Positions 12,909 to 51,762 are shown, counted from the first letter of the stretch. The stretch: DNA of 51,762 bases from Asterionella formosa (GCA_002256025.1 NKIB01013776.1:1-51762); one strand, 5' to 3'. The notes: generated by a model from the sequence alone, not told the origin. Program-made: numbers and translations.

Positions 12909-13793
12909 TCACATGACGTTTTGTTGTTGGAGTTGCTTCTTAGGTTTGCCATCAACCTTTCCCGTAGAGACCGTTCCGTTACTGTTGTTTGCTTGACTCA
13001 CTGACCCTCGGTCCAAAATAATTTTACAATTTACACGCGTTCCATCGAAAGGAAGTACCAAATGACCGTATGCGGATCTGACGCGGTGTACTTCATCCAC
13101 GAAGTCAGCACGCGGCATGAGGTGTGCGCCCAATTGTCCTTTGTAATCCATGGCCATACCCAAATCCCACATGGAGAACCCATGGTTACATAGCAACTGA
13201 CCCAGCGCTGCCAGTTGCACCGAGCCAGCACTGTCTTCCGCAGAAAAGCCAGTCAAGGAAGTGTATATACTTCCAACGGTATAGCCAAGCTCTCCTGCGG
13301 CTAGTCGTCCTGTATCGGTGTTCCAAACCTCTATGCTGTAAATGCGAACTTTAGCAGATTTGCTGGTGGGGGCGTCCACAACCGCGTCGACGCCGTCAGC
13401 AGCTAAAATGGTGGCAAAGGCAGCTACTAGCGGTGGAAGCAACCAACAGTTATCGTGCTGGGCATGACAGCCTTGGATGACGCCCTCCAGACATGTATTA
13501 ACGGAAAGACAAAATCTCTTGCTCTTTTTCCTGATCGACTTCGAAGTGTGTAAATCGTGGGGTAATGAAATAACGCAACGTTCTTGGTGGAGTTTGGGAA
13601 GCAGGACTCCTTGGGTAGCGATAGGTAGAAAGCCTTCGGCCATTAGCTGGACAATCAAGCAGGGATGAAAGCATGGAGATTGACAATAGTCGCTGTAGTA
13701 CGGTAGAACCATGTGCTTGAGATAGTTTGGTATGTAGCATTGAATGTCGTCTTCACCGGCAGAATCGGACTTTTTGTGGCCATTGGGAGCCAT
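12909..13793 (-). CDS. Leucyl/phenylalanyl-tRNA-protein transferase (Aat) family aminoacyl-transferase
   Basis: Intronless 294-aa ORF. Family motifs: H.SKS.RKK, VI.GC...H..CWL, SIEVW....LAAGELGYTVGSIYTSLTGF, AGSVQLAAL, WDLGM.MDYK..LGA..MPR. Confidence 0.85.
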   Translation of the reverse strand: MAPNGHKKSDSAGEDDIQCYIPNYLKHMVLPYYSDYCQSPCFHPCLIVQLMAEGFLPIATQGVLLPKLHQERCVISLPHDLHTSKSIRKKSKRFCLSVNTCLEGVIQGCHAQHDNCWLLPPLVAAFATILAADGVDAVVDAPTSKSAKVRIYSIEVWNTDTGRLAAGELGYTVGSIYTSLTGFSAEDSAGSVQLAALGQLLCNHGFSMWDLGMAMDYKGQLGAHLMPRADFVDEVHRVRSAYGHLVLPFDGTRVNCKIILDRGSVSQANNSNGTVSTGKVDGKPKKQLQQQNVM

Positions 13794-14089: not shown

Positions 14090-14530
14090 ACTACATGGTA
14101 CCTGGTACAGGTATGTAGCAGATACGGTAACTGATACGAATACCAGCAGGGTGGGTACCTGGTTTGTACGGATATTCGAGAGTACCTGCGCCTCCCTGTT
14201 AATTCAAGGAATTGCTCATACCCTGGTACCTGGTACCAGGTACCAGGTACCCCGGTACCAGGGTACCTGCAAGTTGCGGTCATTTTGCTTAAACTAACAT
14301 TTTCATCAAGGATAAAGAGAGCTAAATCTTTAGTTTCAGGAAAATTACCGCAACTTGCTCGTACCTGGTACCGGTACCTGGTACCTTCTTCTGCCTTCCT
14401 CGATACTCCGAGTACATTTTATGGACATACAATGCATCCATCCAACTGTGTTCGAGGTACCCTGGTACCTGATACCTTCCCCTGGTACAGTATCTAGACC
14501 GGGACTTGGTAGCAGGTACCAGGTACCTGT
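14090..14530. repeat. GGTACC/CCAGGTACCTGG-rich low-complexity palindromic tract
   Basis: Dense runs such as ccctggtacctggtaccaggtaccaggtaccccggtaccagggtacc (14221-14267). Confidence 0.85.
14269..14358. mobile_element. 90-bp MITE-like element, copy 1
   Basis: Terminal inverted repeats gcaagttgcggt(c/a)atttt(g/c)ct. An inverted homolog lies at 23248-23330. Confidence 0.7.
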
Positions 14531-23507: not shown

Positions 23508-23660
23508 ATTCAGGAAGCATTATGACTTTCGGGAAATTCATATAAATTTCAGGAAATGACTTTGGCTTTCAGGAAAACTTTAGGAAACTTCAGGAAATGT
23601 CAGGAAACATAAGAAAATGCGTAAGGAAATTTTCAGGAAATGCATGGAATTTCCTGAAGT
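23508..23660. repeat. Cluster of ~10 short TTCAGGAAA-like repeats (transposon subterminal-like)
   Basis: Repeated ttcaggaaa/ttcgggaaa/ttaggaaa, plus one inverted tttcctgaa. Confidence 0.7.
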
Positions 23661-23814
23661 CTCCAAATTTAGTTTTTTCTGGCCAAAGTGAAAAAACACA
23701 TATCCTTCGATCTGGATTTTAAGTACCGTACAAGATTCCCTGCTGGTAATAGTTAGGATCATTTTTGAAATACCCGTAGTGGTGTTACTAACTAATATAT
23801 ATATACCGGCATAT

Positions 23815-24695
23815 GTAGTCTTGCTGCCACCCATATGTCGATCAAGGGCGGCAGTGATTTGATGGCTGGAAGATGGATGATTGCAAGTTGCACTGGTATG
23901 TTCAGGGTGTTTGGTGAGACCATGAGTCCAACAATAGCCTAATTGAACATTGTTGTAAATGTATCCAGAAGGGACAGCACGAGCAGCTGCAGCAATACCT
24001 GGTATTGGGGGAGGGCTACTGGTTTGAATGGCAGCATGGGCACCATGATAACTGGCGATGGTGGCGGTGGCAAGGCGCAATCGTTCCTTATCAGCATGCA
24101 TGAAATGAGGGCATAAATTAACCCATGTACAGTCCATCTCAGCGCAATCACACCAAGTTTGAATACTATGAGAATATACACCAGCCTGTTCTAAAGCAGA
24201 AAGAGTCAACCGCATGACAGTACTGTCAGATAAAGGCTCCCCACCAGAATCGGCAATGGCACAAAGATGCTTGATGCGCATCAATAAATGTTCAATAGGT
24301 TCCTCTGGTGTCCAAGCATCAGCCAAGCGCATGCGATTAAGTTCTAAATCATCCGCACTCAACGTTGCATATTTAGATTCTAAGTGAGCAAGCAAGGTCA
24401 TAACAGTGATGTCTACATATCCAAAGGTAGCATCTTCCAGAACGTTGTAGTAAGTAGGGTCAATGGCTGTTAGAATTTGTTGCCGGGGAATTTCACGGAT
24501 TTGGGAGTAACAGCGGAATGTGTCAAGGCAGGTGTCAAAGAGACGGTTGGCAGCAGTGATTTGGGACTTTGTGGCAGTACCACTGTGTGGCGGCTGGGTG
24601 CCGGGATGTTCGGGCGGTAAAAATGGTTCACCAGCACGTAAGAGATAAGTAGCAGCAGCCATGACAATACCAAGGAAACCATTGGCACCAGACAA
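23815..24695 (-). mobile_element. gag: Ty1/copia gag of diatom (CoDi-like) type, without pol or LTRs
   Basis: Motifs G..GFLG.V, P.HPG, QQIL.AID..Y...L.D...GY..., L.HL...Y, W.P.EPIE, TW.N...HF, and the C-terminal YCWTHG...H.S.TC...H...A....MGGS. After MGGS the ORF runs on into unrelated repeat DNA. Confidence 0.85.
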
Positions 24696-24789
24696 TGTTT
24701 TCTTAACATCTATGAGATGTTTTGCATTGTAGAAGTCTCACACTAGCTAACTATTTTTTATGTAAATACTAAGTATGCATTGGATTCTA

Positions 24790-25681
24790 TTAGATCCATA
24801 CAAAATCAACGTCGTCATCAATGACCCATTGAAAAATGCGGTTATTGTAATCAATATTCTTCTCAGGTACATTTGGTTGAAGTGGTTCAACATATTGATG
24901 CATATACTCATCACTTACGTTGTGAAATGAGAAGTATGAGTGTGGGTAGATGATATTTGTTGTGGAAGTAGCAATTCCACTAGGATTCCTTCCATATTCA
25001 GATCGATTCTTTTGTGAAAGTCCAGTGTAGATTTCCTTATAATAACCGAGTAAATCATCAGTCCATTGATCTGTGAGACCATTTGAAACTGAAATTTCTT
25101 CCCTCACACTTTTTTGATAAGTGGTTTCCCACCAATTTCGACAAAATCAGTAGAATGACGAATATGGTTCTCTGAAATTTCTTGCGTATCTGGATTGAAA
25201 CCCAAATATTTTTGTTGCAATCGGAATTTTCCTTTCAGCACCAAGAAGCAAAATGCTTCTGTACTGGCAATGATCAGCGAACCAACAAAACGTGATTGCA
25301 ATTCACAATGTGCCCAAAGACTTAGTTGAAATTTGGTCACACCAGATTTGTCTCCTGTTAAAAATGGTTTTCCACGGCTTGTCCTGCCTATAAAACACAC
25401 TGGATTAAGAACGATTCTCTTTCGGGACCTGGAAAAAGCACATTAGATTGATATTCTGTTTTACAGTACCTGCAATTCACGATCAAACCTACATGTTCAC
25501 AGCAAAACTTCTTGGTCTTGAAAATAAAACTTACAACATTTGTGACAATTGATGGTTCAATTTTAGCTAAGCCGGAACGACGTTCTGATAAGGCTGCTGA
25601 AACTGAAGATTCTTGATAACCTTGTATGGACGAGTTTTGAACCGAATTACGACCTTTGTAGTGATTGAGCTCATTTACCAA
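24790..25681 (-). pseudogene. Fragmented ORF of unknown function, probably transposon cargo
   Basis: Three consecutive same-strand ~100-aa fragments separated by a frameshift and a stop, back-to-back with the transposase remnant at 25760. Confidence 0.4.
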
Positions 25682-25759
25682 TTGAAAATTTCCTTTGGCA
25701 AGTGCAAAATTTTTTTCCCTCAGTTTGTCATGTACTTGTTGGTCCGTGCAATTAGAAAG

Positions 25760-26104
25760 TTTATGATGGCAGGACTGCTACGTGATTCCGATATCATGCA
25801 ACATTTTGTATGTCACCCACAAATGAAACTTACAACTTGTGGAGAACGCATGCATATATGACAAAGTAACTTCCGCGACTTGGTTGAAAATGCATTCAAC
25901 AATTCTCCTGCATCAGAAAATGGAGTGTTGAAGACAGGGTGTTTATTTGTTGCCCTAGCAGTTTTCAGTGATGGTGAGGGCTCACCTATTGATAAACAAA
26001 TGAAACATTCCGAGCATCCGTTTTTGTTGACAATGTTAAACTTAACGTTAGAAGGAAGGGAAAAAATGGATGGATGGCAATTGGTATCTTTTATCAGTGG
26101 ATGA
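25760..26104 (+). mobile_element. Plavaka-like transposase remnant
   Basis: LLRDSDIMQHF...TTCGERM / ENAFN..PASENG.LK.G.LFVALAVFSD...IDKQMKHSEHPFLLTMLNL......DGWQLVSFI. This fits the Plavaka pattern (catalytic D...HP...T..N...W..l.fi) and is homologous to 46730-47099. Confidence 0.65.
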
Positions 26105-30047: not shown

Positions 30048-30265
30048 GTAGTACCGGTAGTTAATGTCCACAAGCAAAATGAAATATACCGATCATCTAT
30101 ATCAATACCCGTATATTATATCTATGCACACTGCGTAGACGTCATCATGGTTACTTGTCATACTTGAACTTCCAGAAAAGCAATCGTCACGGATTATTTC
30201 CTTGGTTCCCCTTCACTTCAGGCGTTCTAAACATCAAGTTCGTCGCGATCACCTTACCGAGAATC

Positions 30266-31724
30266 ATGAAGCTTTCGGTGTCTCTCTTCCTCCTCAGCAT
30301 CGGCAGTGCTTCCGCACTTGTTCCCATCTCGGGAAGCAAAGGCACTGGCGAAGGGTGGTTGATGAACCCTGCCTCTCCCGTGAACTCAGCAGCGTCGCTC
30401 AAGAAGACGCTCGCCAAATCTCTCGAAGGAACCGACTTTCAAAAGCGCCTCTCTCTGTTGGGTTCTACTGGGAGCATTGGAACACAAACACTGGAGATTG
30501 TCGATGCCTGTCCTGATAATTTTGTCGTGGACGCGCTGTCTGCCGGAACAAATGCCCGCCTAATGGCAGAACAAGTTATGAAGTATTCCCCCAAGGTGGC
30601 CTCGCTTGCAACTGAAGCAGCCGCTGCCGAACTCAAGGATATCTTGTCACAAATGGGATGCAAGAAAATGCCCAAAATCATGTTTGGGGACGAAGGCATA
30701 TTGGCAGCTGCCACTGTGGATACAGCCGATACTGTCGTGACTGGGATTGTAGGAGCTGCTGGACTCAAGCCAACAATTGAAGCTATCAAGCTTGGGAAGG
30801 ATATCGCTTTGGCCAACAAGGAGACGTTGATTAGTGGAGGACCTGTGATCAATCCATTAGTGCAGAAATATGGAATTACCATGTCACCTGCTGACTCGGA
30901 ACACTCTGCAATCTTTCAGTGCTTACAGGGAGTTCCAGAAGGCGGACTTCGTCGTGTCATCTTGACTGCATCTGGAGGGGCCTTCCGAGACCTGTCCAAG
31001 GAGGAATTATTTACTATGTGTAAGGAGGATCCAAGAGCGGTCCAGTCCAAGGCAACGACACATCCCAACTGGGATATGGGAGCCAAGATTACGTTGGACA
31101 GCGCAACAATGATGAACAAAGGATTAGAGGTACGTGCCTTATATTCATTCATGATTTTTAAGGCTTGTCGCCAACTGCTTATTTTTTCCGCAGGTCATCG
31201 AGGCTCATTATTTATTTGGCGCAAGCTACGACGATATTGATATTGTAATCCACCCTCAATCCATAGTTCACTCGATGGTGGAGACCCAAGACACAAGCTG
31301 CATGGCCCAACTCGGATGGGCCGATATGAGACTGCCCCTAGCCTACTCCGTTTCTTGGCCTCACAGATTAAAGCTACCATATAGACCCCTTGATTTGGCA
31401 GAATTGGGCCAACTCACTTTTTTTAAGCCAGATCACGAAAAGTACCCTTGTATCAAACTTGCTTACGCCGCCGGACGAGCAGGAGGAACCATGACGGCTG
31501 TCCTGAATGCTGCAAATGAAGCTGCAAATGAAAAGTTTCGTTCAGATGTGGGACTCGGATTCTTGGATATTCCAAAATTGGTGGAAAGTGCCATGGAGGC
31601 GCACAAAGAAGAGCTGAAAGTGGATGAAGTGGACTTGGAAGATATCTTGTTCTTTGACAAATGGGCACGAGACCATGTGGACGCGGCAGTCTCAAGGCTT
31701 GATTCAAAACTACTAATTGTATAG
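30266..31724 (+). CDS. dxr: Plastid 1-deoxy-D-xylulose-5-phosphate reductoisomerase, 2 exons, ~464 aa
   Basis: Motifs [78 protein letters not shown] intron at 31130-31193. The presequence [20 protein letters not shown] is ASAFAP-type. Confidence 0.97.
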
Positions 31725-36406: not shown

Positions 36407-38402
36407 TTAGCCGCTGAGTTGAGTAGTACTGCTGCTAATACTACCATACAGGTTGTTGCCCCCTGGTTGGATAGGATCACCCCAAATTGGAGTGAGACAC
36501 TGGCTATTTCCAGATGTAGTCAAAGTGCTCAACTCGGATGCAATTGAGGACACGAGGGGAACATGAATCCCCAATTCGTCCTCGGGCATCAACGGATAAC
36601 GACTTTCCTTCCACCCGCCTCCACGAGATGGCGTGAACTTTATAACTGTGTGCATTGGGACTTCAATAGACATGCACTTCTCGACTGGCGAGGCACGAAA
36701 ATAAGCGATTAGGGTTTGCAAGACGCTCACATGGCTCACAACCAAGACGGGTGAGACTTGCTGCTCCACATCAATAATAACAGTTTCTAACCGATTGATT
36801 ACATCACGATAGCACTCTCCACCGGGAAATCTGCAATGACATGTGGTCAGCAACACAGCAATACTAAAATGAACAACATATGCACTCAACAATTGCATTA
36901 CCATACCTTGTAAAAAAAGGATCTTGTTCTAGCTTGGCGTACCAGTTTGAGTCCACTTCCTTGATTTCACCGAGCTCCATTCCTGCATAATCACCCTTAT
37001 CGAGGGGATTGAGATTTGAAAGAGTGTCGATCGGAAACCTATGATAGTCCCAGTCCACGGTCTCGACAGCTCTTGGCATGGTACTGGTGAAAATCCTGCA
37101 AGGAAAAGGTAACTCTTTTCCGTCAATACCAACTTCGTTCTTGAAGGATGACAGTCCTGTTCTGGAAGTTCCTGTATGGAGGCTGCGATGGTACATCGAT
37201 TCTACAGCTGCCCGCTCCATCATAAATTCATTGCCCTCCATCGCGATGAAGTTCCAAAGTTCATTTCGAAACGACTGGCCAGTTGGACCAAGGCTATTGT
37301 TCCTGTTCGAAAGCTTTCTTGTGTGCACTGTCAAATCCATGTCTCCAACTTTAGCAACATAGTCTTCTTCATCTGTTTTCACATTACTTGGCACCTTGCC
37401 GGGTCTACAAAGGAATACAGGCCTGGTACCTACATTCCAAGCCATTAATGCAGGCACAATGAGTTTGGCCATTCGACCGTAGATATGATTGACCATGAGT
37501 TTCGTCGAAAGGTTGAAGATTTTGATGTACGACTGACTTTCGTCAGTTATTGTTTCATACTGCTCTTCGTACTTTTGAACGCGAACCATGAGATCTGCCA
37601 TTGCGTCGTCTATGTTCATATCTTTGTAATCCGGACTACTTTCCACTTTGAATTTGTAGTTTTCGCGCAGCAAATCGATATCATCACAAATAGACTCAAC
37701 AAAAACCACACCTGTTGGCTTTCCCGCACGTTTCGAGGGATGCGTACACTGATCTAAGATCCAAGCTCGTCTCTTCGCCGTAGAATTGGTTGCATCAAAA
37801 ATTGCAATCCGGTCCGAATTATGCTGCCCTTCCCTGGACCAATCCGCATTCGAGGCAGATGTCGAAACGCTTTCAGCGTCTTCGTCTTCTCCATCCAGCC
37901 ATTTCAGCATATCTATAAGTGCCATTTCTGCAACTTTCTCCCTCAAAGTCGCTGCACTTACGTTGTTTGCGTCGAAAAAGTCGGCGTTGCAGGCTCCACT
38001 TTCGGCTCGCCCATCATCTGGAGACTTTGTGGCTAGCTCCGCTGCTGCTTCTCTTCGATATTTTCCCACATTAAAGACCTTGGTTTGTATTGTTCTCCAT
38101 GTTAGAAAGGACAGAAGTTTGCGGGCAACAAAGCTTTTCCCCCTGGCTGGCAGACCAACCAAGGCAATAACCAGTCTTTTGGAATTACCAGTCAGGTTGT
38201 TCCTCTGAATCAAAAGGGCAGAGGATCAGATTCGAATACAGGGCAACATGCTTCATTGAGCATTAGCAACGTATCTTGTGACCAAATCTGATGGGGAGCC
38301 CAAACTCACCTTGGTTAGCTTTCGAAGCGTCAACGGTGTCACTTGTGCTGCTTCTTCGTTTCCCGCTGTGTAGTAGGAGCTATTGGCGTCTCCGGTTGCC
38401 AT
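36407..38402 (-). CDS. 6-phosphofructo-2-kinase/fructose-2,6-bisphosphatase, 3 exons, ~604 aa
   Basis: ATG at 38402; introns at 38205-38309 and 36831-36906 keep the frame (1815 nt). Kinase motifs LVGLPARGKS, FNVGKYRR, IFDATNST, VFVESIC and SYIKI. Phosphatase-domain motifs R.PGGE.Y.DV..RLE and VLVVSH. Confidence 0.95.
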
Positions 38403-39918: not shown

Positions 39919-41480
39919 TCACTTCTTGGCAGAGTTCATAGCAAGAGAATATAGGAGCGTTCCAAAGATGGCAATAGACGATCCAACAATGCTTCCTGTG
40001 CTCATTGGAGTTTTGAAGGCAATGACGGAAGCAACGATGATGACAACACGCTTAATGGTGTTTCCAACAGCATGGGTGACGGGATTGACCTATGGAAGGA
40101 AAGTGATTGGATGTGTTAGAAATAGACACAAACAATTTCAAAGAAATTTGAAGTATTTATGGCAAAACACATACCTTTCCGAGGGCAAGGAAGGCAACCT
40201 CGTTGTACGCATAGTAAGAAGCACCACCAAGTGCAAGAAGTGTTGAAAGGGACTTGGTAGTGTACTGGCCTGCCTTAACAAGGTCACCAAAAGCCTTGAA
40301 CATGCCGGTACCCTCAATTGCAAGAGCTGTAGGGATGAGCATCAAGGCGGACATTGCAGTCAAGACAGCGTAAAGGTTCTGGGCATCAAGGTTTTCGCCG
40401 ATCTTCTTTCCAGACATCGTTTTCTTGGAAAGAACGCCGCGGGCCGCAGAGGAAACATTAGAGAGCATTGCAGCTGCGAGAGCTAGAACCGTAAATGAGA
40501 GTTCCTTCATGGAGGCGATAGCAACTCCTCCAATAATTGGGAGAAGAGTCAAGTAAACTTTAGTGGGGAGGATCTGTCCAAGGAGAAGGGCATTAAGTCC
40601 ACAGGTAACGACAGGCTCCGAAGCCTTGACAATGTGAGCAAACGACACGGCTCCTGCACCGAGAGCAATGACAGCTCCGACGTGGACACCAGTATGGCAA
40701 AGGGCAATAGGGATAAGGGTTTTGATGTCATCCATACTGAGCTTGGGTGCCTTGCGAAGGCCAGTGAGCCACAAGGGGACAAAGTAAAAAACTCCAGCAA
40801 CCATCTGAATGGTCGCGACAGTCCAAGGGAAGGCAAGCGCGTTCAAGGATTGCTTGTTATAAATATTGTAGGCAATGTTGAACAGGTACCAAAGGGCGAA
40901 ATACATGCCGACTTGAAGAGTCTCGCCCAAACCGCCCTTTGGTTCATCAGCTTTTGCAGCAACTGCACCTCCAGCAGAAGAAAGGGCAAGAGAAGTAGAA
41001 CTCTTCACGTCACTCCTAAGAAAATGGAAGAGCAAGGTTAAGAAAGCATGAGAAAACTTATATTCTTTGTTTAATACTGAGATAATATGAATAGAATCTA
41101 GGAAGTTGTTGGTCGGATCTTCTGTTCGAGAATCGAGAACACAAAACCATCTTCCGGTCAGGTCTCGCTTGCACTTGTTATAGACGGTACTGAACAAAGA
41201 AAAATTGCAATTCAGAGGCGTTGAAACAAATGCTAAGGCATTCATGTTTTACTTTTGCTCCTCAGTTTGTACAACAACGCTACACGTCAACAGATTCGCC
41301 CAATACGCGCCGATGGACTGACATCTCCGAAGGAACTCACTTTGAAAAAGGAAGGCGAGGTCCGTTCTTGACGACATTCGTGCTGACAATACTCTTGACA
41401 GCAGGACCAGGAATGAAGGCACTGGCGGTAACACCAGTGGCGGCCAAGGCCAAGACGAGTAAAGCTTTCTTCATCATCAT
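39919..41480 (-). CDS. tpt: Plastid triose-phosphate/phosphate translocator, 3 exons, ~383 aa
   Basis: Presequence MMMKKALLVLALAATGVTASA-FIP (ASAFAP). Introns at 41016-41340 and 40090-40174 are in frame (1152 nt). Motifs YFALWYLFNIAYNIYNK, AVSFAHIVKASEP, YNEVAFLAL.KVNPVTHAVGNTIKRV. Confidence 0.95.
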
Positions 41481-41639: not shown

Positions 41640-42135
41640 ACGGGGGTACCAAGTACGAGGTACCGCCTGGTACCTGGTACCAGTTACTCTGTGTGGTCAT
41701 CATGTACTCACAATGTGTTAGTAGAACCTACGAGAGATCCCATAATGTATCAGGACAGCAGTCTTGACATATATACCAGAACATAAATACTTAAACATGT
41801 ATTCCTACATACTGAACAGTAGACTACCTGGTACCGGTACCGGTATGTACATGGAAGACCTCACATACTGATGGTACCAGGTACCTCGTACCAAGAACCT
41901 CCGGTATACTATACTACAATACTACTACGAATGGGTACCCGAGAAAGAATCGACTACCGGTAGAAGCGGAATCCTTTAAGGCCATACGTGTTGTCGTAGT
42001 CTTGTGCTGCATTGGTGTAGGTTTACTATAGCACCTTCGACAAAGCTCGCTATATGTACGTGTATCGACTGGGTACCTGGAAGTCTACTGGTACCTGGTA
42101 CATGTAGAGTCGAAGCTATGTAGTGCAGTGGTACC
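41640..42135. repeat. GGTACC-rich tract upstream of the translocator gene
   Basis: cctggtacctggtaccag, cctggtaccggtaccggta, ggtaccaggtacc and similar. Confidence 0.75.
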
Positions 42136-45392: not shown

Positions 45393-46725
45393 ATGTCGTA
45401 CAGCAACAATGGTTGTCGAAATGAGTCCAATGATGTTGATAAACTTCTTCGTTATTGGGGCGTTTCAAATGATCCCTGTATTTTTACTAATATTGTTGGT
45501 GCTGGTATTGATACAGAAGAAAAAAGGAACAAGCTTCTGTGCACCATTAAGGCCGTATTTGAGAAGCATCGCCAAAATTGGGAAACTTTTTTCCTGACAA
45601 GCCGATGGAATTATTCATTCCTGTCAAACCAAATAAAGATCATCGACGTCGTGTATTCTCCATTTATGCATTGACACAGGCGAGTGAAAACGAAATGTTG
45701 ACGCCAGTTCATCTTCTCCCAATACCATTCCAAGAAGTAAAGATTATGTTGCTTGTATGCCCATGGTAGATCTTGTTTCTACTTCCTCAGAGCGTCTAAT
45801 TGAGTCTATTGAATCTGATAGACTTGATATGATAAAATCTCCCCCTTCCAAAGCAAAAGCAAAATTTAAATAATAGGCAACTCCAGACATGGTTGCCAAT
45901 CCGGAAGAAGAAGTCCATGACTTGTCACCAACGAGTTCCGAAATTGTATGAGTGATTGGGAAAGTAAATAAAAAAACAGGTCCAGGAGGAAAGTGATTTG
46001 TCCCATTTATCTAGTAAAGAGTTAGAAATATTGAAACAGGACATGGTCGTCAGTCTGGATGTAATTCATGACTTCTTACCAAAGATTTCCGAAACTGTTG
46101 CAGTCACTGGGACAGTAATTGAGCAGGTCAAGGAGATAAGTGATTGATCCTATAATGATAAATCATTATTGAAATTATTTGATGAAGGAATTCATAAATA
46201 TTTATGCGAAAGAGCGAGGAGAAGTGAAGAAACACATCAATTACTTGTATCGAAAAAATCGATAAAGGGAAAGATTGCAGCTGCTGTTTCGGGATATGGC
46301 AACAAATTGGAATGTTTCAACAATCACCTTTATAGTGTTTCACCCTCTTTTTTGTGGAAAGCGTGTCCCGCCCATTCTGCGTGAATTGCCAAGTATTTGA
46401 TATACCTTTTCGGTTCCCACTTCCGTTGGTGGGTCCGGAGTCTCATAAGCTTTACTACAATACATACTCTCGCTCCCCCTCAGAAGTACGTCAATATTGC
46501 AGGAATGAGTATTCCCTTAAATTTTCAGAGAAGCAGTAAAGGGACAATCTTATTGAACTGGACAATTGTGCATATTGGTATATTGAAAATGTGACCGCCA
46601 TTGTGAAGGTCATTGTTCATGAACTGCATCCCTCAAACATTCATGTAATTGTTGAATCTCAAGACAGAAATGATTGGAATACTGAACATCCTTATCCATC
46701 TTCTAGATGTGCATTGGTGAATCTC
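45393..46725 (+). pseudogene. Fragmented ORF(s) of unknown function converging on the transposase remnant
   Basis: A chain of + strand ORF fragments (45393, 45578, 46169, 46354, 46591) broken by stops and frameshifts. Confidence 0.4.
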
Positions 46726-46729
46726 GCTA

Positions 46730-47710
46730 ATGGATGTTCAGAATGTTTCTGCATTTTGTCAATTGTGGATTCATCACTGAAAAGTCCAATTCCTACAAAC
46801 AGGTGGCCGGCTTTTAGTTACCCATCCTCTGAAGCGTGGGATTCATTAAAAGCTGAGTGAAACCATTCTGCAGAAGTAGTTTCATCGAAAATGCGTTTTC
46901 CGCAAGTTGTGAATTTCTCTTGCGGGCAGTACAAAAAATGTTTCATCACGTCAGGATCTTGTAGCATGGAACCCAGTAACCCAACAGGATCGAAATAATG
47001 CAGAGTGCAGGGTAGTTGAAATCCTAAATTAGGTTCACTTTGCCATTGTTTTACCAAAAACTTCCCCCCTGTAAGAGACGGAGGAAATGATGTATTCAAA
47101 TTTTTTTAAATGTCTGATGGGAATAGCCATCATCACAAGCCTTGAAAGCCCAATTCATAATATGATCAAAGTAGGATGGTGGCAAGAAATGTTCGTTGAT
47201 AAATAATGTTAGCTCTAACTCGATTGGGTCCATTGCTAATGTTTCTCTACTGGGAATAGACAAGTTGTATTGCAGAGGAATATGCTTTGATTGATGCAAT
47301 AAAAGTCCTTCTTTTTTCCTTGTTTTCAAAATACTGTATGTTTTTCCGGATATCGATTCAAACTGTATAGTCTCTTCTCGGTCCTCTGTCGAGATAATAT
47401 CATCATCATCTTGGAAGCTATTATTTGCTTCGGGGAAAGAAACATCACCGGCTGGTTGCTGAATGCCTTCCAATGTTTGTCTGCTCGTGAAAAGGTGTTC
47501 AGAGGGAGTTTTGAAACAGAATTCCGACGATGCAACGATCGACGGATCTAGCTGGTGTTCTTGATAACTAACACGACACCAACCAATTGGTACAAAAGAA
47601 CGATTCGAGCAAATATTGTGATGCAATCTCGGTGGTTTCCGATTTTTTCTCACTTTGTAGCCACATAGTGGACACCAGTTATAGATCCTTCGTGTAGGAC
47701 CTGATAACAT
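46730..47710 (-). mobile_element. Plavaka-like transposase pseudogene (N-terminal half)
   Basis: ATG at 47710 and an N-terminal CPLC...HH..C Zn-finger-like motif. Then LP.SYFD.IMNWA and YFDPV..L.SML.DP.VM...G.RIFDE...AEWF..A, then (after a stop) LFVGIGLFSDESTIDK..KHSEHP. One frameshift at ~47097, one stop at 46818, truncated after SEHP. Confidence 0.7.
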
Positions 47711-47929
47711 TTGTCAACCAATACCATCAGTCATCGAATGAAATGACTTTGTCTTCACTTGTAACTAAGTTTCATGATGATACGCATTGGGACCAACTAA
47801 ACATTCATGTTAGAATACTGTATAATTTGTCGGTACTCTCGAACAGTAGGTTTGCCCAACCAGTATTGCGGTATTCCTCAAGCCATTGATGAATTTCTTA
47901 CGTTTTTGACGGTTACTTTACGGCCGCTA

Positions 47930-49425
47930 CTAACCGTGGACACAAACCAAAACACAAAAACTTATTTTTGGATTGGTTTTTATGAAATTAGATCTTAAGT
48001 TAGACCACACTGTTCCGTCATGTTGCAATAAGAATGATGAGAATTTGTGGTTACGACCACATTTTGATCCATCAGTGTGTATGTTGTCATCCTGTCGTTT
48101 CAGTTCGGCGACGTAGTGTCCATTTCTTTGCTTTATGCTGGCGACAAATAGAAATGAATCCATAGAGCACCATTTTTTAAACTATTATCCAAATCTNNNN
48201 NNNNNNNNNNNNNNNNNNNNNNNNNNNNNNNNNNNNNNNNNNNNNNNNNNNNNNNNNNNNNNNNNNNNNNNNNNNNNNNNNNNNNNNNNNNNNNNNNNNN
48301 NNNNNNNNNNNNNNNNNNNNNNNNNNNNNNNNNNNNNNNNNNNNNNNNNNNNNNNNNNNNCTTTGAACGGTATGGACAAATGTATTGCATGTTTCTCATC
48401 CACACAATTATCCCATATATTTAAACAGTTCCCTCCTAAAGACAAGGACATAATCATTCCACAAGGCATAGGAGTGTCCTTTTTTGCATTCTGTTGGTGT
48501 ATAATCTTTGTGTGGTTTATGAGGCTTTGGGTAGTCATTCTTTCCAGAATTGTTGAACAACATAGTGGCAGTGTGCGGTATAATTCTGTCGCTATTGCCA
48601 GAGACATCATCGGAACCTGCTATTAACAAGCACTTTATCATATGCCAAAATGTTTTCACATTTGGCAGATCCAGCTTTGAATATTTTAAGCTGTCAGTAT
48701 AATTCTTGAAAGGAAACACTTGCATGGCTTTTCCTTCAAAAGTATTTGCAAGTGCTTGCAGTTGTTTTGAATGTTTGTTTCAACTAACGAATAGGAGGGT
48801 TATAGATTTTCTCGGAAGTACAAAAAGATTTCGCCACATGTAAAACTGGATTAATTTTTCCTTCTATTCCAAAAAACTCATCTGGAAGGAAAGATAGATT
48901 GAGGAAAAACCCGCGTTCTTGTTCAATTCCGTCTATAACATAAAGGAAGTTATCGGTTCTCAGAACTGTTTTGATTAACCGTAATGAATCAGTGATGAAC
49001 CATTGGAAATCGTCTATTTCTGCTGCATTTGGTGGCATGTTGTTGTGTTTCTGATGTAGTTTAAAATCTCAAGGAAAGTGAGTTTTCCATAAAATCATCG
49101 CTGGTCCTATATGTTTCCGAAATTTCCTTGAAGTTTCAAATGATGTTTTGTTAAACAAGCCAGACTTTAGGACAACATAGAATTTGATGAGAACAAAATC
49201 CAGGACACTGTCATCTAGTCTTGTCTCCTTGCCTTTGTCATCATGATCAAAGTATCTAACCATTAAGAGTCGTTCCTTACTCTTCCATTGTCTCTTGAAC
49301 ATACATGAAATACGCCATAGAAACAGGTTTTTCCTGATTGAAAAATCTGCGATTGGTATCCCCTTCACAACCAAGATCGTTCCATTCCTTGTAGCACTCG
49401 GAACGTTTGCCATTCCAGATAACAA
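47930..49425 (-). pseudogene. Decayed 2OG-Fe(II) dioxygenase-like gene
   Basis: TMLFN....PHKPHKDY (HxD). After a frameshift comes PCGMIMSLSLGG.CLNIW....HLSIPF, then the N-gap, then NGAL(W)IHFYL. This is the strand order expected for the DSBH fold; the distal His would fall inside the gap. Confidence 0.55.
48197..48360. other. Assembly gap (164 N)
   Basis: Run of n. Confidence 1.
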
Positions 49426-49601
49426 GTGATATATTGCACTATCGACAGTGTGTGAATGTCAAGTTGTTGAGAGAAACGTGACTGTAACAGAACAAGGAAG
49501 CAGAAAGGGATAATGGTCTGTCAACTATAGGATTAGACAGAGGGCGAGTGCTGGATCGGAAGTGATGCAGCACCGACAATACTCAGTAATAGACATTAGA
49601 T

Positions 49602-50109
49602 TGGTAGCGCAAAGCTACAGTTTCATAGTACCAGCGTAGTAATACGTACAGTGTCACTGTAGCCATGTTATGTTCCAACCGGGTATTGAGACAAAGGGGA
49701 AAAAGCAAGGAATGCTGGTAGGGCAAACCTACAGTTTCATAGTACCAGTGTAGTAACCGGTACAGTTTCACAGTAGTCACGTCATGTTCCGACCGGGTAT
49801 TAAGACAGCAAGGGGAAGAAGGGAATGCTGGTAGGGCAAACCTACAGTCTCACAGTACCAGCGTAGTAATAGGTACAGTTTCACTGTAGCCACGTCATGT
49901 TCTGACTGGGTATTGAGACAAAGCGGAAGAAGGGAATGCTGGTAGGGCAAACCTACAGTTTCGCAGTACCAGCGTAGTAACCGGTACAGTTTCACAGTAG
50001 TCACGTCATGTTCCGACGGGGTATTGAGACAAAGGGGAAGAAGGGAATGCTGGTAGGGCAAACCTACAGTCTCACAGTACCAGCGTAGTAATAGGTACAG
50101 TTTCACAGT
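49602..50109. repeat. 111-114 bp tandem array, ~4.6 copies, alternating A/B variants
   Basis: ggaatgctggtagggcaaacc at 49709, 49822, 49933 and 50044. Units alternate between gtaata.gtacag..tcactgtagcc (A) and gtaaccggtacagtttcacagtagtc (B). Confidence 0.95.
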
Positions 50110-51421
50110 GATCGTGACTCTTGACTCCTGTTCGGAAGAAGCTGATAGGAGCTAATAATAAGAGGAAAGCCCAGTAGTACTCGGAGGAACGATCACAAGT
50201 GTCCAGGTGAACAAACTGGTACAGAGAAGTAACCCAAAAAATAAAATCGGATTTATTATACTCCGTAAAGTTGGTTTCGGTTACACCAACTAACAAAGAG
50301 AAGAGAATAAGCAAACAAATATAATAAAAAAACACACAATAAGGAATCCAAATAAACTTACTCAAAACTGAACGAATGAAATGGTTCAATGTCAATTAGA
50401 AATAATGAATACGTTTAATGCACATTCCTCCAAACATACAGTCAATGTACTCTTTTCTTTCCTTAGCACTTCTTACAGATAGGAAATCGGTTCCTCTTTG
50501 AGAAACTTCTTCAACACCATTCCAGATGCAATACGCCAATTCAGAATCATCCTTAACAGCAAGAGCGATTTCGGGATGACGTTTCAACAGGAACGAAATG
50601 CACAATCTTGCATACCAATGACTTGTTGGACTTGATATTCCAATACTACTTGGCACACATGTTTCAGCAGGGTGTTTGTAAACTGTAAGGACAATGAAAG
50701 TAAAAATGGTTGGTAACGTTATCAAAAACAAGGTGATTCGAGGAGATTTAAATGTGTACATGAACTTACTTGGGTGTGACAAAATTTTCTAGTCTGAAAT
50801 ATTTCACCAACTACTTCGGTTGCATGAGAGGAAGTTATCGATGCAACTACATCCCTTCGTCTTGTATAAACAGTAGTGGCAAGGCTGGAATCTTTGTATC
50901 CACTGATAGAAGAGTTATTCAGGGAAATTTTGCGTTCCAACAGGGCAATCTTATTATGAAGTTGTTGAATATAATACTTATGATTCTGATCAATCACTGT
51001 CTCACGACTAAGGCGGAACTGTGATATATTTGAAATTGTCGCCAATATCGAGATGTAAGTCCATAATATTTGTCTTTGGATTATCAGTCACTGGTGAATC
51101 GTCACTCCTTCCTTGAATGGGTGGATAAAAAGGCGGCACCTTCTTGTTACCAGGAGAGGAAAGTTCTGACAAAATATCATCATCTTCAAAATCTGAATCT
51201 TGATGATGATCTCGCTGCTTTGTTGAAGCAGTTGTATTTGTTACAAACTCTTCGTACTCATGAGACAATTTCGTTGCAGGGGTAACCAAATGCCTGCTAT
51301 GTTTGACATGAATAGGAAGGCTTTTTCCAGTCTTATCATCCTGATTACTGTTGCGGTACTTCTTCTCAGACAAGTTATCAACTCTAGAATAATCGCTTCT
51401 TTTTATTCCTCTACCGGACAT
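50110..51421 (-). pseudogene. Fragmented, probably intron-containing ORF of unknown function (transposon cargo)
   Basis: ATG at 51421, a low-complexity N-terminus, a coiled-coil-like segment and further fragments (50722-51045, 50396-50782, 50072-50395) joined by frameshifts or introns. It ends abruptly at the tandem array. Confidence 0.45.
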
Positions 51422-51762
51422 GACGATAACATTTTACAGGAGTCAAGGTAAACAGGCCGCTGATGCTTTAAAATCAAAGAATGAAACAATATTATAAGAG
51501 AGAAGTCTGATGTTATTTTTGGCGCGCCAAGATTAAAAAGGCGTTGGTCTCTTAGATCATACAGAAATATTAATTTATCATTCACTGTCTATGTTGTTAT
51601 AATCTGAGTACTTCGGCATTATATCATAATAATGCACTTCAATTGTTTTCAATCATGTTCAAATACCTACCGGTAGTATTGATCAATACTGTAGCCAAAC
51701 TTGAACGTTAGAACAGTACCGACAGGAACATAGACGAAATGTACGGTACCCCCTGGTACCAG

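Follow-up and report, generated by a model that had tools for sequence, protein, structure and literature searches.

Between 46.7 and 51.6 kb, a 51,762-nucleotide stretch of DNA from Asterionella formosa (GCA_002256025.1 NKIB01013776.1:1-51762; hereafter the window, along whose full length all coordinates are counted) is a mosaic, in which a spliced gene (gene A), a tandem array, an orphan open reading frame (ORF2) and the beginning of a Plavaka-family transposase gene follow one another on the minus strand from high to low coordinates, with junctions at 50109 and 47980. The reading that we favour, at roughly an even chance, is that this is a dead assemblage drawn from three distinct repeat families, each at very high copy number in one alga (family A, module B and repeat C), in which ORF2 most likely encoded an oxygenase of the PhyH kind. 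The original prediction had described a single Plavaka-like transposon carrying a 2-oxoglutarate (2OG)-Fe(II) dioxygenase gene. The minus strand does carry every feature that it listed (the cargo frames, the array, the decayed frame with a PHKDY motif and a transposase led by a zinc finger), and the prediction was right about the Plavaka identity, about the motif pattern and in doubting a TET/JBP relationship. The linkage of ORF2 to Plavaka, however, is not general, and the evidence only suggests the oxygenase fold.

Three truncated repeat families

Contigs of four sequencing runs, including a DNA run (X1) and two RNA libraries of different studies (X20 and X7), were aligned to 46500-51700; runs containing window sequence are labelled algae, freshwater or lake metagenomes, and X1 resembles a run of the source sample. 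Every part of this interval is extremely repetitive, with 27,461 pieces placed from X1. Contig depth over ORF2 and the array lies far above that over the Plavaka fragment and gene A, but depth cannot rank the parts and so was not used. Parts A, B and C belong to three families, all cut short at their joins, because contigs have loose ends at 47980, 50109 and 46701, gene A continues differently elsewhere, and module B is confined to 50109-47980.

The gene A family is transcribed and spliced. Where the original prediction had placed a cargo ORF (51421-50110), reading frames do exist, at 51433-50110, but these three frames belong to one intron-containing gene and not to a single open ORF. In RNA contigs from two studies (X20 and X7), 50682-50770 and ~50287-50361 are skipped, with joints at 50681->50771 and 50286->50362, and both skipped stretches begin with GTAAGT on the minus strand. 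The premature stop (Table 1) is an in-frame TAA that reads CAA in most other copies, and a relative of 312 amino acids (P0021), 93% identical to gene A, has Q at this position. Elsewhere the family continues with ...KSHDHYLLGPVRSF... for ~120 residues (P0021, P0022), a tail that is missing near the locus, and an X7 contig tracks gene A and then departs at 50109. No Pfam family matched gene A. In the mosaic, family A would represent a transcribed, spliced gene truncated on its 3' side.

Module B would consist of the 111-base tandem array together with ORF2, in a usual context that continues into other sequence. Six loci on JGI (Joint Genome Institute) metagenome contigs (L001-L006) match the window at the DNA level (82-89%) only within 50109-47980, the match stopping ~10-20 bases past the ORF2 stop at one end and inside the array at the other. 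In their flanks, tblastx at E 1e-3 gave no further match to the window, and blastn gave one of 39 bases, at 14210-14247. L001 is ~90% identical to the group formed by L002-L006 (97-99% identical to each other) and has the same downstream flank as this group, unlike that of the window. At 47980 itself, on the Plavaka side, 35 X1 and 3 X20 contigs depart from the window, and one X20 contig tracks ORF2 and departs at 47983 into a flank of the L001 type. The array was predicted with a repeat of 111-114 bp, and its period is indeed 111, with unit spacings of 111-114 bases; an array of ~4 units also precedes ORF2 in L002, L004, L005 and L006. It is not a known RNA gene, as neither an Rfam family nor a tRNA was found within 45500-51762.

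Repeat C bears out the prediction of a Plavaka-like transposase with an FSD...HP core. The Plavaka profile PF18759 scores 25.9 bits on 46818-47105 alone (cut-off 26.3) and 39.3 bits (E 6.1e-10) on 46715-47105 with the one TAA read as X. This match stops at profile position 135, and the remaining 190 positions (136-325) are not supplied downstream, where none of the 41 ORFs of at least 45 amino acids in 41900-46730 matches Plavaka; a 1755-base X20 contig (record 18) matches window positions 47333-46729 and then runs on for ~1.1 kb of sequence absent from the window. Repeat C is therefore a true Plavaka-family gene of which the 5' part alone is present, and would correspond to the first ~40% of a transposase gene. 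Its ORF opens with CPLCGYKVRKNRKPPRLHHNIC at 47713 and, past a frameshift and one TAA, reaches LFSDESTIDKMQKHSEHP; a search for relatives of this N-terminus of at least 360 amino acids found none, with no score among 255 candidates, which is weak evidence. No inverted-repeat pair flanks 46.7-51.7 kb, in a copy so truncated that its ends may be missing.

The copy is dead, as predicted, and this holds for gene A, ORF2 and the transposase alike. ORF2 has suffered two in-frame stops, at least three frameshifts (one of them directly after PHKDYTPTECKKG) and the 164-N gap; in addition, a Trp replaces the motif Arg (ALWIHFYL), and the natural stop of the family, after ..GWSNL, is mutated.

Table 1. 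Features of the mosaic and of related sequence in the window.
Feature	Position	Strand	Description
Gene A	50110..51433	-	High-copy, transcribed, intron-containing family; premature stop at 50396-50398; cut off at 50109/50110 by the array
Tandem array	49602..50109	-	111-base unit, 4.5 copies, 88% matches; 5' part of module B
ORF2	47990..49458	-	Decayed copy of an orphan protein of ~470 amino acids; C-terminal ~180 residues with H-x-D...H...R
Assembly gap, 164 N	48197..48360		Real missing stretch of ~38-41 bases, encoding FIFLMRGDIVHGGA
Junction of module B and repeat C	47980		End of L001-L005 homology; loose contig ends
Inverted partial core of the array unit	47832..47877		Single copy between ORF2 and the Plavaka ORF
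Transposase N-terminal region	47096..47713	-	C-x2-C...H-H-x2-C motif; no Pfam family
Plavaka core fragment	46715..47105	-	Profile positions 43-135 of 325; one in-frame TAA; truncated near 46701-46715
Second mosaic	24997..26104		Gene A paralogue 24997-25777 (minus) head-to-head with Plavaka fragment 25763-26104 (plus)

Possible relation of ORF2 to PhyH oxygenases

ORF2 belongs to a family represented in protein collections by short pieces. A phmmer search of 1.84 billion representatives with 48408-48779 as query returned seven proteins, all of 52-138 amino acids, and a word-based search with the family member P0005 returned 14, all of 83-154 amino acids and none with a Pfam family. Overlapping fragments nevertheless reveal the ancestral frame, and L001 (408-941) retains an intact family ORF of 178 amino acids. 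This ORF, P0005 and P0011 read ...VIPHTATMLFTNSGKNGYPKPQKPHQDYTPTE...GMIMSLSLGGNCLNVWDN...AIHLSIPFKFIFLMRGDIVHGGALDNS..NGALRIHFYLSP...FLLQYDGTGWSNL followed by a stop, and the same three, together with P0014 and P0019, share one conserved pattern (PHQD, 57 residues, GDIVHGG, 13 residues, Arg). ORF2 is covered by transcript-library contigs; among viral contigs searched with the ORF2 alignment there were 82 pattern matches and no relatives.

In the window, where PHKDY is encoded at 48515-48501 (HKD at 48512-48504), the original prediction had noted the H-x-D and had asked for a distal His in the sequence of the gap. The relatives complete the motif in just this way: in P0005, P0011 and the L001 ORF the distal His falls within the stretch that the assembly gap has removed. 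In L001, 38 bases separate the flanks of the gap, in which ~14 ORF2 codons have been lost; in X1 the gap is bordered by loose ends at 48193 and 48362 (16 contigs each), which, read by eye, encode the same residues as the relatives, so that a distal His is indeed present there. An H-x-D...H with a downstream Arg is accordingly found in the L001 ORF, P0005 and P0011. As metal ligands we propose the first two motif residues, His and Asp in PHQD, together with the GDIVHGG His, and as 2OG-binding residue the Arg 14 residues past that last His; the motif pattern is observed, whereas these roles, like the fold and any substrate, are inferred.

Our best guess, which sequence comparison on balance somewhat favours, is that the C-terminal ~180 residues of ORF2 would fold as a PhyH-like double-stranded beta-helix (DSBH) oxygenase. 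Such a fold is plausible because language-model placement, with scores of 0.90-0.93, points to PhyH and because profile tests, although weak, are co-linear with it. For P0011 the three best matches in the ESM Atlas are PhyH clusters (0.90), and all ten of the best family-bearing matches lie in one family or clan; for the L001 ORF, 23 of 30 matches are PhyH, the best at 0.92 (159 of 256 features shared), with a HalD halogenase cluster also listed. These best neighbours are PhyH clusters of 164-191 amino acids, comparable to the short PhyH forms of ~170-190. For profile comparison, 35 PhyH genes were taken from Bacteroidota genomes, and the 32 of at most 330 amino acids were aligned. Against this set, hhalign placed GDIVHGG...R on H.s..N.S...R, with the distal His (score 17.3), and on maximal extension PHQD also fell on WHqD in the same co-linear alignment. 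A local PhyH hidden Markov model (HMM) gave the L001 ORF 4.3 bits, a score attained by 5 of 2000 shuffles. When seven families were compared by hhalign (AlkB-like 20.4, PhyH 17.3, 2OG-FeII_Oxy_3 13.6, SDR 13.4, Cupin_2 12.2, glyoxalase 12.0, DXR 10.5), the two highest scores belonged to DSBH families, AlkB-like and PhyH; a TauD search of 41 Bacteroidota genomes yielded no sequences for this panel.

ORF2 thus resembles PhyH (PF05721) in having HxD, distal His and Arg in the same order at similar spacing, and in a strand-loop-HxD segment that aligns to ...K.p......WHqD. It differs in its lack of a Pfam match, in its association with transposons, in an extra N-terminal region of ~290 amino acids, to which Pfam scans gave no assignment, and in a distance from the second strand to the distal His that is ~30 residues shorter than in the bacterial set.

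Several results weigh against a PhyH identity. No Pfam family matched any piece or relative of ORF2 (at E up to 10 or, in some scans, up to 1), a PDB sequence search with the ORF2 profile gave no match at E up to 10, and AlphaFold2 models reached mean pLDDT (predicted local distance difference test) values of only 47.4 (P0011) and 36.0 (L001 ORF), too low for a fold search, since models of such low confidence give meaningless matches. By the tool's own figure, an ESM Atlas score of 0.9 is attained by 4-10 of 100 shuffled proteins. Against PhyH, hhalign falls short of significance (P 0.05, probability 1%), its score being reached by 14 of 200 column shuffles, and the higher-scoring AlkB-like match is short and lacks co-linearity with the motifs. 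In an off-frame control, a segment of L005/L006 scored 4.6 bits against another part of the PhyH HMM, so that a score of ~4.3 bits does not discriminate. Conversely, when an ORF2 HMM was run on 144 panel sequences, 13 of the top 15 were DSBH proteins, but none scored above 2.4 bits, and PhyH sequences did no better in the median than glyoxalase or cupin decoys. Of the predicted 2OG-Fe(II) dioxygenase, then, the complete H-x-D...H...R stands for the family, whereas Pfam, the PDB and the AlphaFold2 models do not back the fold.

The alternative that survives best keeps the mosaic as we describe it and takes ORF2 to be no oxygenase at all, its H-x-D...H...R being fortuitous; ORF2 would then be an orphan transposon protein, such as the second protein, a DNA-binding one, on which PIF/Harbinger elements depend. 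The missing profile, PDB and structural support speak for it, as do statistical tests that are all marginal, with an off-frame control scoring like the real frame. So does the architecture of a ~470-amino-acid protein whose N-terminal ~290 residues have no assignment, and so does its position, since ORF2 lies beside a Harbinger transposase in L002, L004 and L005. In L004 this gene, upstream of the array and frameshifted, matches DDE_Tnp_4 (PF13359) at 931-1203 with 40.5 bits (E 2.7e-10, cut-off 24.8). On the other hand, two language-model searches concur on PhyH, the order and spacing of the motif are right and co-linear with that family, and Pfam found no Myb/SANT match in ORF2. Moreover, the Harbinger neighbourhood offers an equally good candidate for the second protein of that element: downstream of ORF2 in L003 (681-2027, minus) lies an intact ORF of 448 amino acids on the opposite strand, acidic in its middle, broken in L004 and matched by no Pfam family. 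We hold a mosaic with a non-oxygenase ORF2 to be less likely than one with a PhyH-like oxygenase.

A TET/JBP identity, by comparison, is not supported by sequence. No Tet_JBP (PF12851) match was obtained for 13 distinct ORF2-family proteins (E limit 10 for 12 of them and 1 for the L001 ORF) or for four pieces of the window at E up to 1. This agrees with the original suggestion that the protein is not clearly TET/JBP and may represent a different 2OG clade; by language-model features, the nearest is PhyH.

Linkage of ORF2 and the Plavaka fragment

The original prediction made the oxygenase gene a passenger of Plavaka. In its fullest form, this reading holds that a Plavaka-type transposon, or a subfamily of one, carries the array and ORF2, upstream of the transposase, as an accessory oxygenase gene and moves with them as a unit, the window copy being a truncated corpse. 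The arrangement invites it: ORF2 and the transposase are on the same strand, with ~270 bases between the ORF2 stop position, as in relatives, and the start of the Plavaka ORF. There is also a precedent, in that excerpts of one study place TET/JBP genes in 11 fungal transposon lineages, Plavaka and Harbinger among them (PMC12730594).

Most copies argue otherwise. The homology of all six metagenome loci ends right past the ORF2 stop, with no Plavaka in any of them, and the 35 X1 and 3 X20 contigs noted above leave the window at 47980. The window itself holds a second Plavaka fragment (25763-26104) without ORF2. This covers the same part of the gene in diverged form (tblastx E 1e-15) and lies beside a diverged paralogue of gene A (tblastx E 0.006/0.011; tblastn with P0021 34-45% identity, E 1.6e-7), of which 24997-25334 corresponds to the gene A tail; the second mosaic has neither ORF2 nor array, and its two Plavaka pieces alone gave no Pfam match. 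The proposed check for element ends turned up no terminal inverted repeats or target duplications, and the transposase covers a limited part of its profile (Table 1). In L004 and L005, similarly, no inverted-repeat pair encloses the Harbinger gene and ORF2, on contigs that are incomplete.

Some observations nevertheless tell against a mosaic of unconnected families. One X20 contig (record 19; 47545-48037, 494 bases with 26 differences, ~95% identical) spans 47980 and extends 57 bases into the ORF2 side, so that a copy diverged by ~5% has the same junction; this single bridging contig may also stem from another strain or from a segmental duplication. Two deletion-type joints link B and C, one at 47580->49385 in three runs (X1, X20 and X7) and one at 46780->48957 in X1, as expected of internally deleted derivatives; their sides are 29-47 bases long, and sides so short can mislead in metagenomes. 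The inverted core of the array unit (Table 1), which lies between ORF2 and the transposase ORF, is complementary to four array units over 46 nt at 76% and over 36 nt at 83%, and includes 18 nt at 94% identity (E 0.016 when the whole window is searched); no such copy turned up after ORF2 in the metagenome loci. Finally, L002-L006 count as one independent context because they are 97-99% identical, so that the Harbinger setting comes down to one locus.

The 47580->49385 joint skips nearly all of ORF2 and the first ~45 Plavaka codons, and is not accounted for by any direct repeat in the window; a chimeric element may have yielded it as an internally deleted derivative. We give only a small chance to a limited chimeric ORF2-Plavaka subfamily that includes such derivatives, and regard carriage of module B by a Plavaka transposon as similarly improbable. 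Under the mosaic reading, the adjacency of ORF2 and Plavaka would be a derived junction, standard in neither family, that was maybe copied a few times. Gene A and Plavaka fragments, for their part, adjoin twice in 52 kb, in differing orientations, and a single element family may include both genes. We considered and rejected the idea that ORF2 was captured from the host, since every relative is a fragment lying among repeats and contig pieces fall on ORF2 in their thousands.

Known transposon-borne enzymes and other features of the window

Plavaka transposons are related to EnSpm/CACTA elements and have been described in fungi. The window fragment is like them in passing the PF18759 cut-off through one stop, in its FSD...HP core and in a zinc-finger-like N-terminus; it is unlike them in being limited to profile positions 43-135, in that the catalytic remainder, the termini and a target duplication were not found, and in its host, an alga and not a fungus. 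Plavaka termini are given, in excerpts of one survey, as TGT..ACA or CATCA..TGATG with target duplications of 2-3 bp (PMC12730594), and a second source, also in excerpt, notes EnSpm-Plavaka elements in the green alga Auxenochlorella (PMC12633428). The literature covered, which did not extend to the supplements of PMC12730594, reports no transposon-borne PhyH-like gene and no diatom Plavaka element.

Two systems invite comparison. Fungal TET/JBP genes lie inside 11 DNA-transposon lineages, including Plavaka and Harbinger, according to portions of the same survey (Kojima 2025, PMC12730594). Like these, module B would put a putative Fe(II)/2OG oxygenase beside a DNA transposon, next to two transposase superfamilies (Plavaka here, PIF/Harbinger in L002, L004 and L005); unlike them, ORF2 has no Tet_JBP match and is nearest to PhyH, its host is not a fungus, and its carriage inside a complete element is hypothetical. 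In the oomycete Phytophthora, HarbingerS and MuDR elements carry a SET histone methyltransferase, as cited in PMC12730594. These are stramenopile transposons with a chromatin-modifying accessory enzyme, and a Harbinger transposase adjoins ORF2 in the metagenome loci, but SET is a different enzyme class from the putative ORF2 oxygenase. The present case would work like either system only on two conditions, that ORF2 encodes an oxygenase and that it is a genuine passenger.

What such a passenger might do can be put more boldly, as a long shot: ORF2 would be an active-site-complete PhyH-type oxygenase that occurs solely as a transposon passenger in freshwater algae, in a module passed between the unrelated PIF/Harbinger and Plavaka superfamilies, much as TET/JBP genes were in fungi, and would benefit the elements that carry it through oxidation of a substrate in chromatin, nucleic acid or a silencing pathway. 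If this were true, a transposon-borne oxygenase would have arisen a second time, independently, from another oxygenase clade and within another eukaryotic supergroup. The theme of transposon-borne epigenetic enzymes (TET/JBP in fungi, SET in oomycetes) would be extended to algae and to another oxygenase clade by a PhyH-like family that is very high-copy, transcribed, confined to repeats and adjacent to two transposase superfamilies. The value of the locus lies not in this dead copy but in its pointing to an orphan, high-copy module of array and ORF2, which has a PhyH-like signature and lies beside two transposase superfamilies.

Further repeats surround the mosaic. At 46500-46701 another repeat family adjoins the Plavaka fragment, and a 1153-base contig from an RNA library matches there and then departs. 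Palindromes and inverted repeats containing GGTACC cluster at 41641-41903 and 51700-51762 (for example GGTACCTGGTACCA, with its complement 189 bases away), and GGTACC motifs of a similar kind occur inside the array unit and at the window end. Beside the second mosaic, an open frame of 385 amino acids at 23580-24737 (minus) has no Pfam family and may be a repeat-borne gene.

The window also contains host genes, several of them split over frames as if by introns: in order, a Kelch/BTB gene (673-2731), a Leu/Phe-tRNA protein transferase (12909-13793), DXR (DXP reductoisomerase; 30083-31724), PFK2/FBPase2 (36407-38225) and a triose-phosphate transporter (40157-41248). DXR and the triose-phosphate transporter are of plastid type, and the genes of the window fit a photosynthetic eukaryote.

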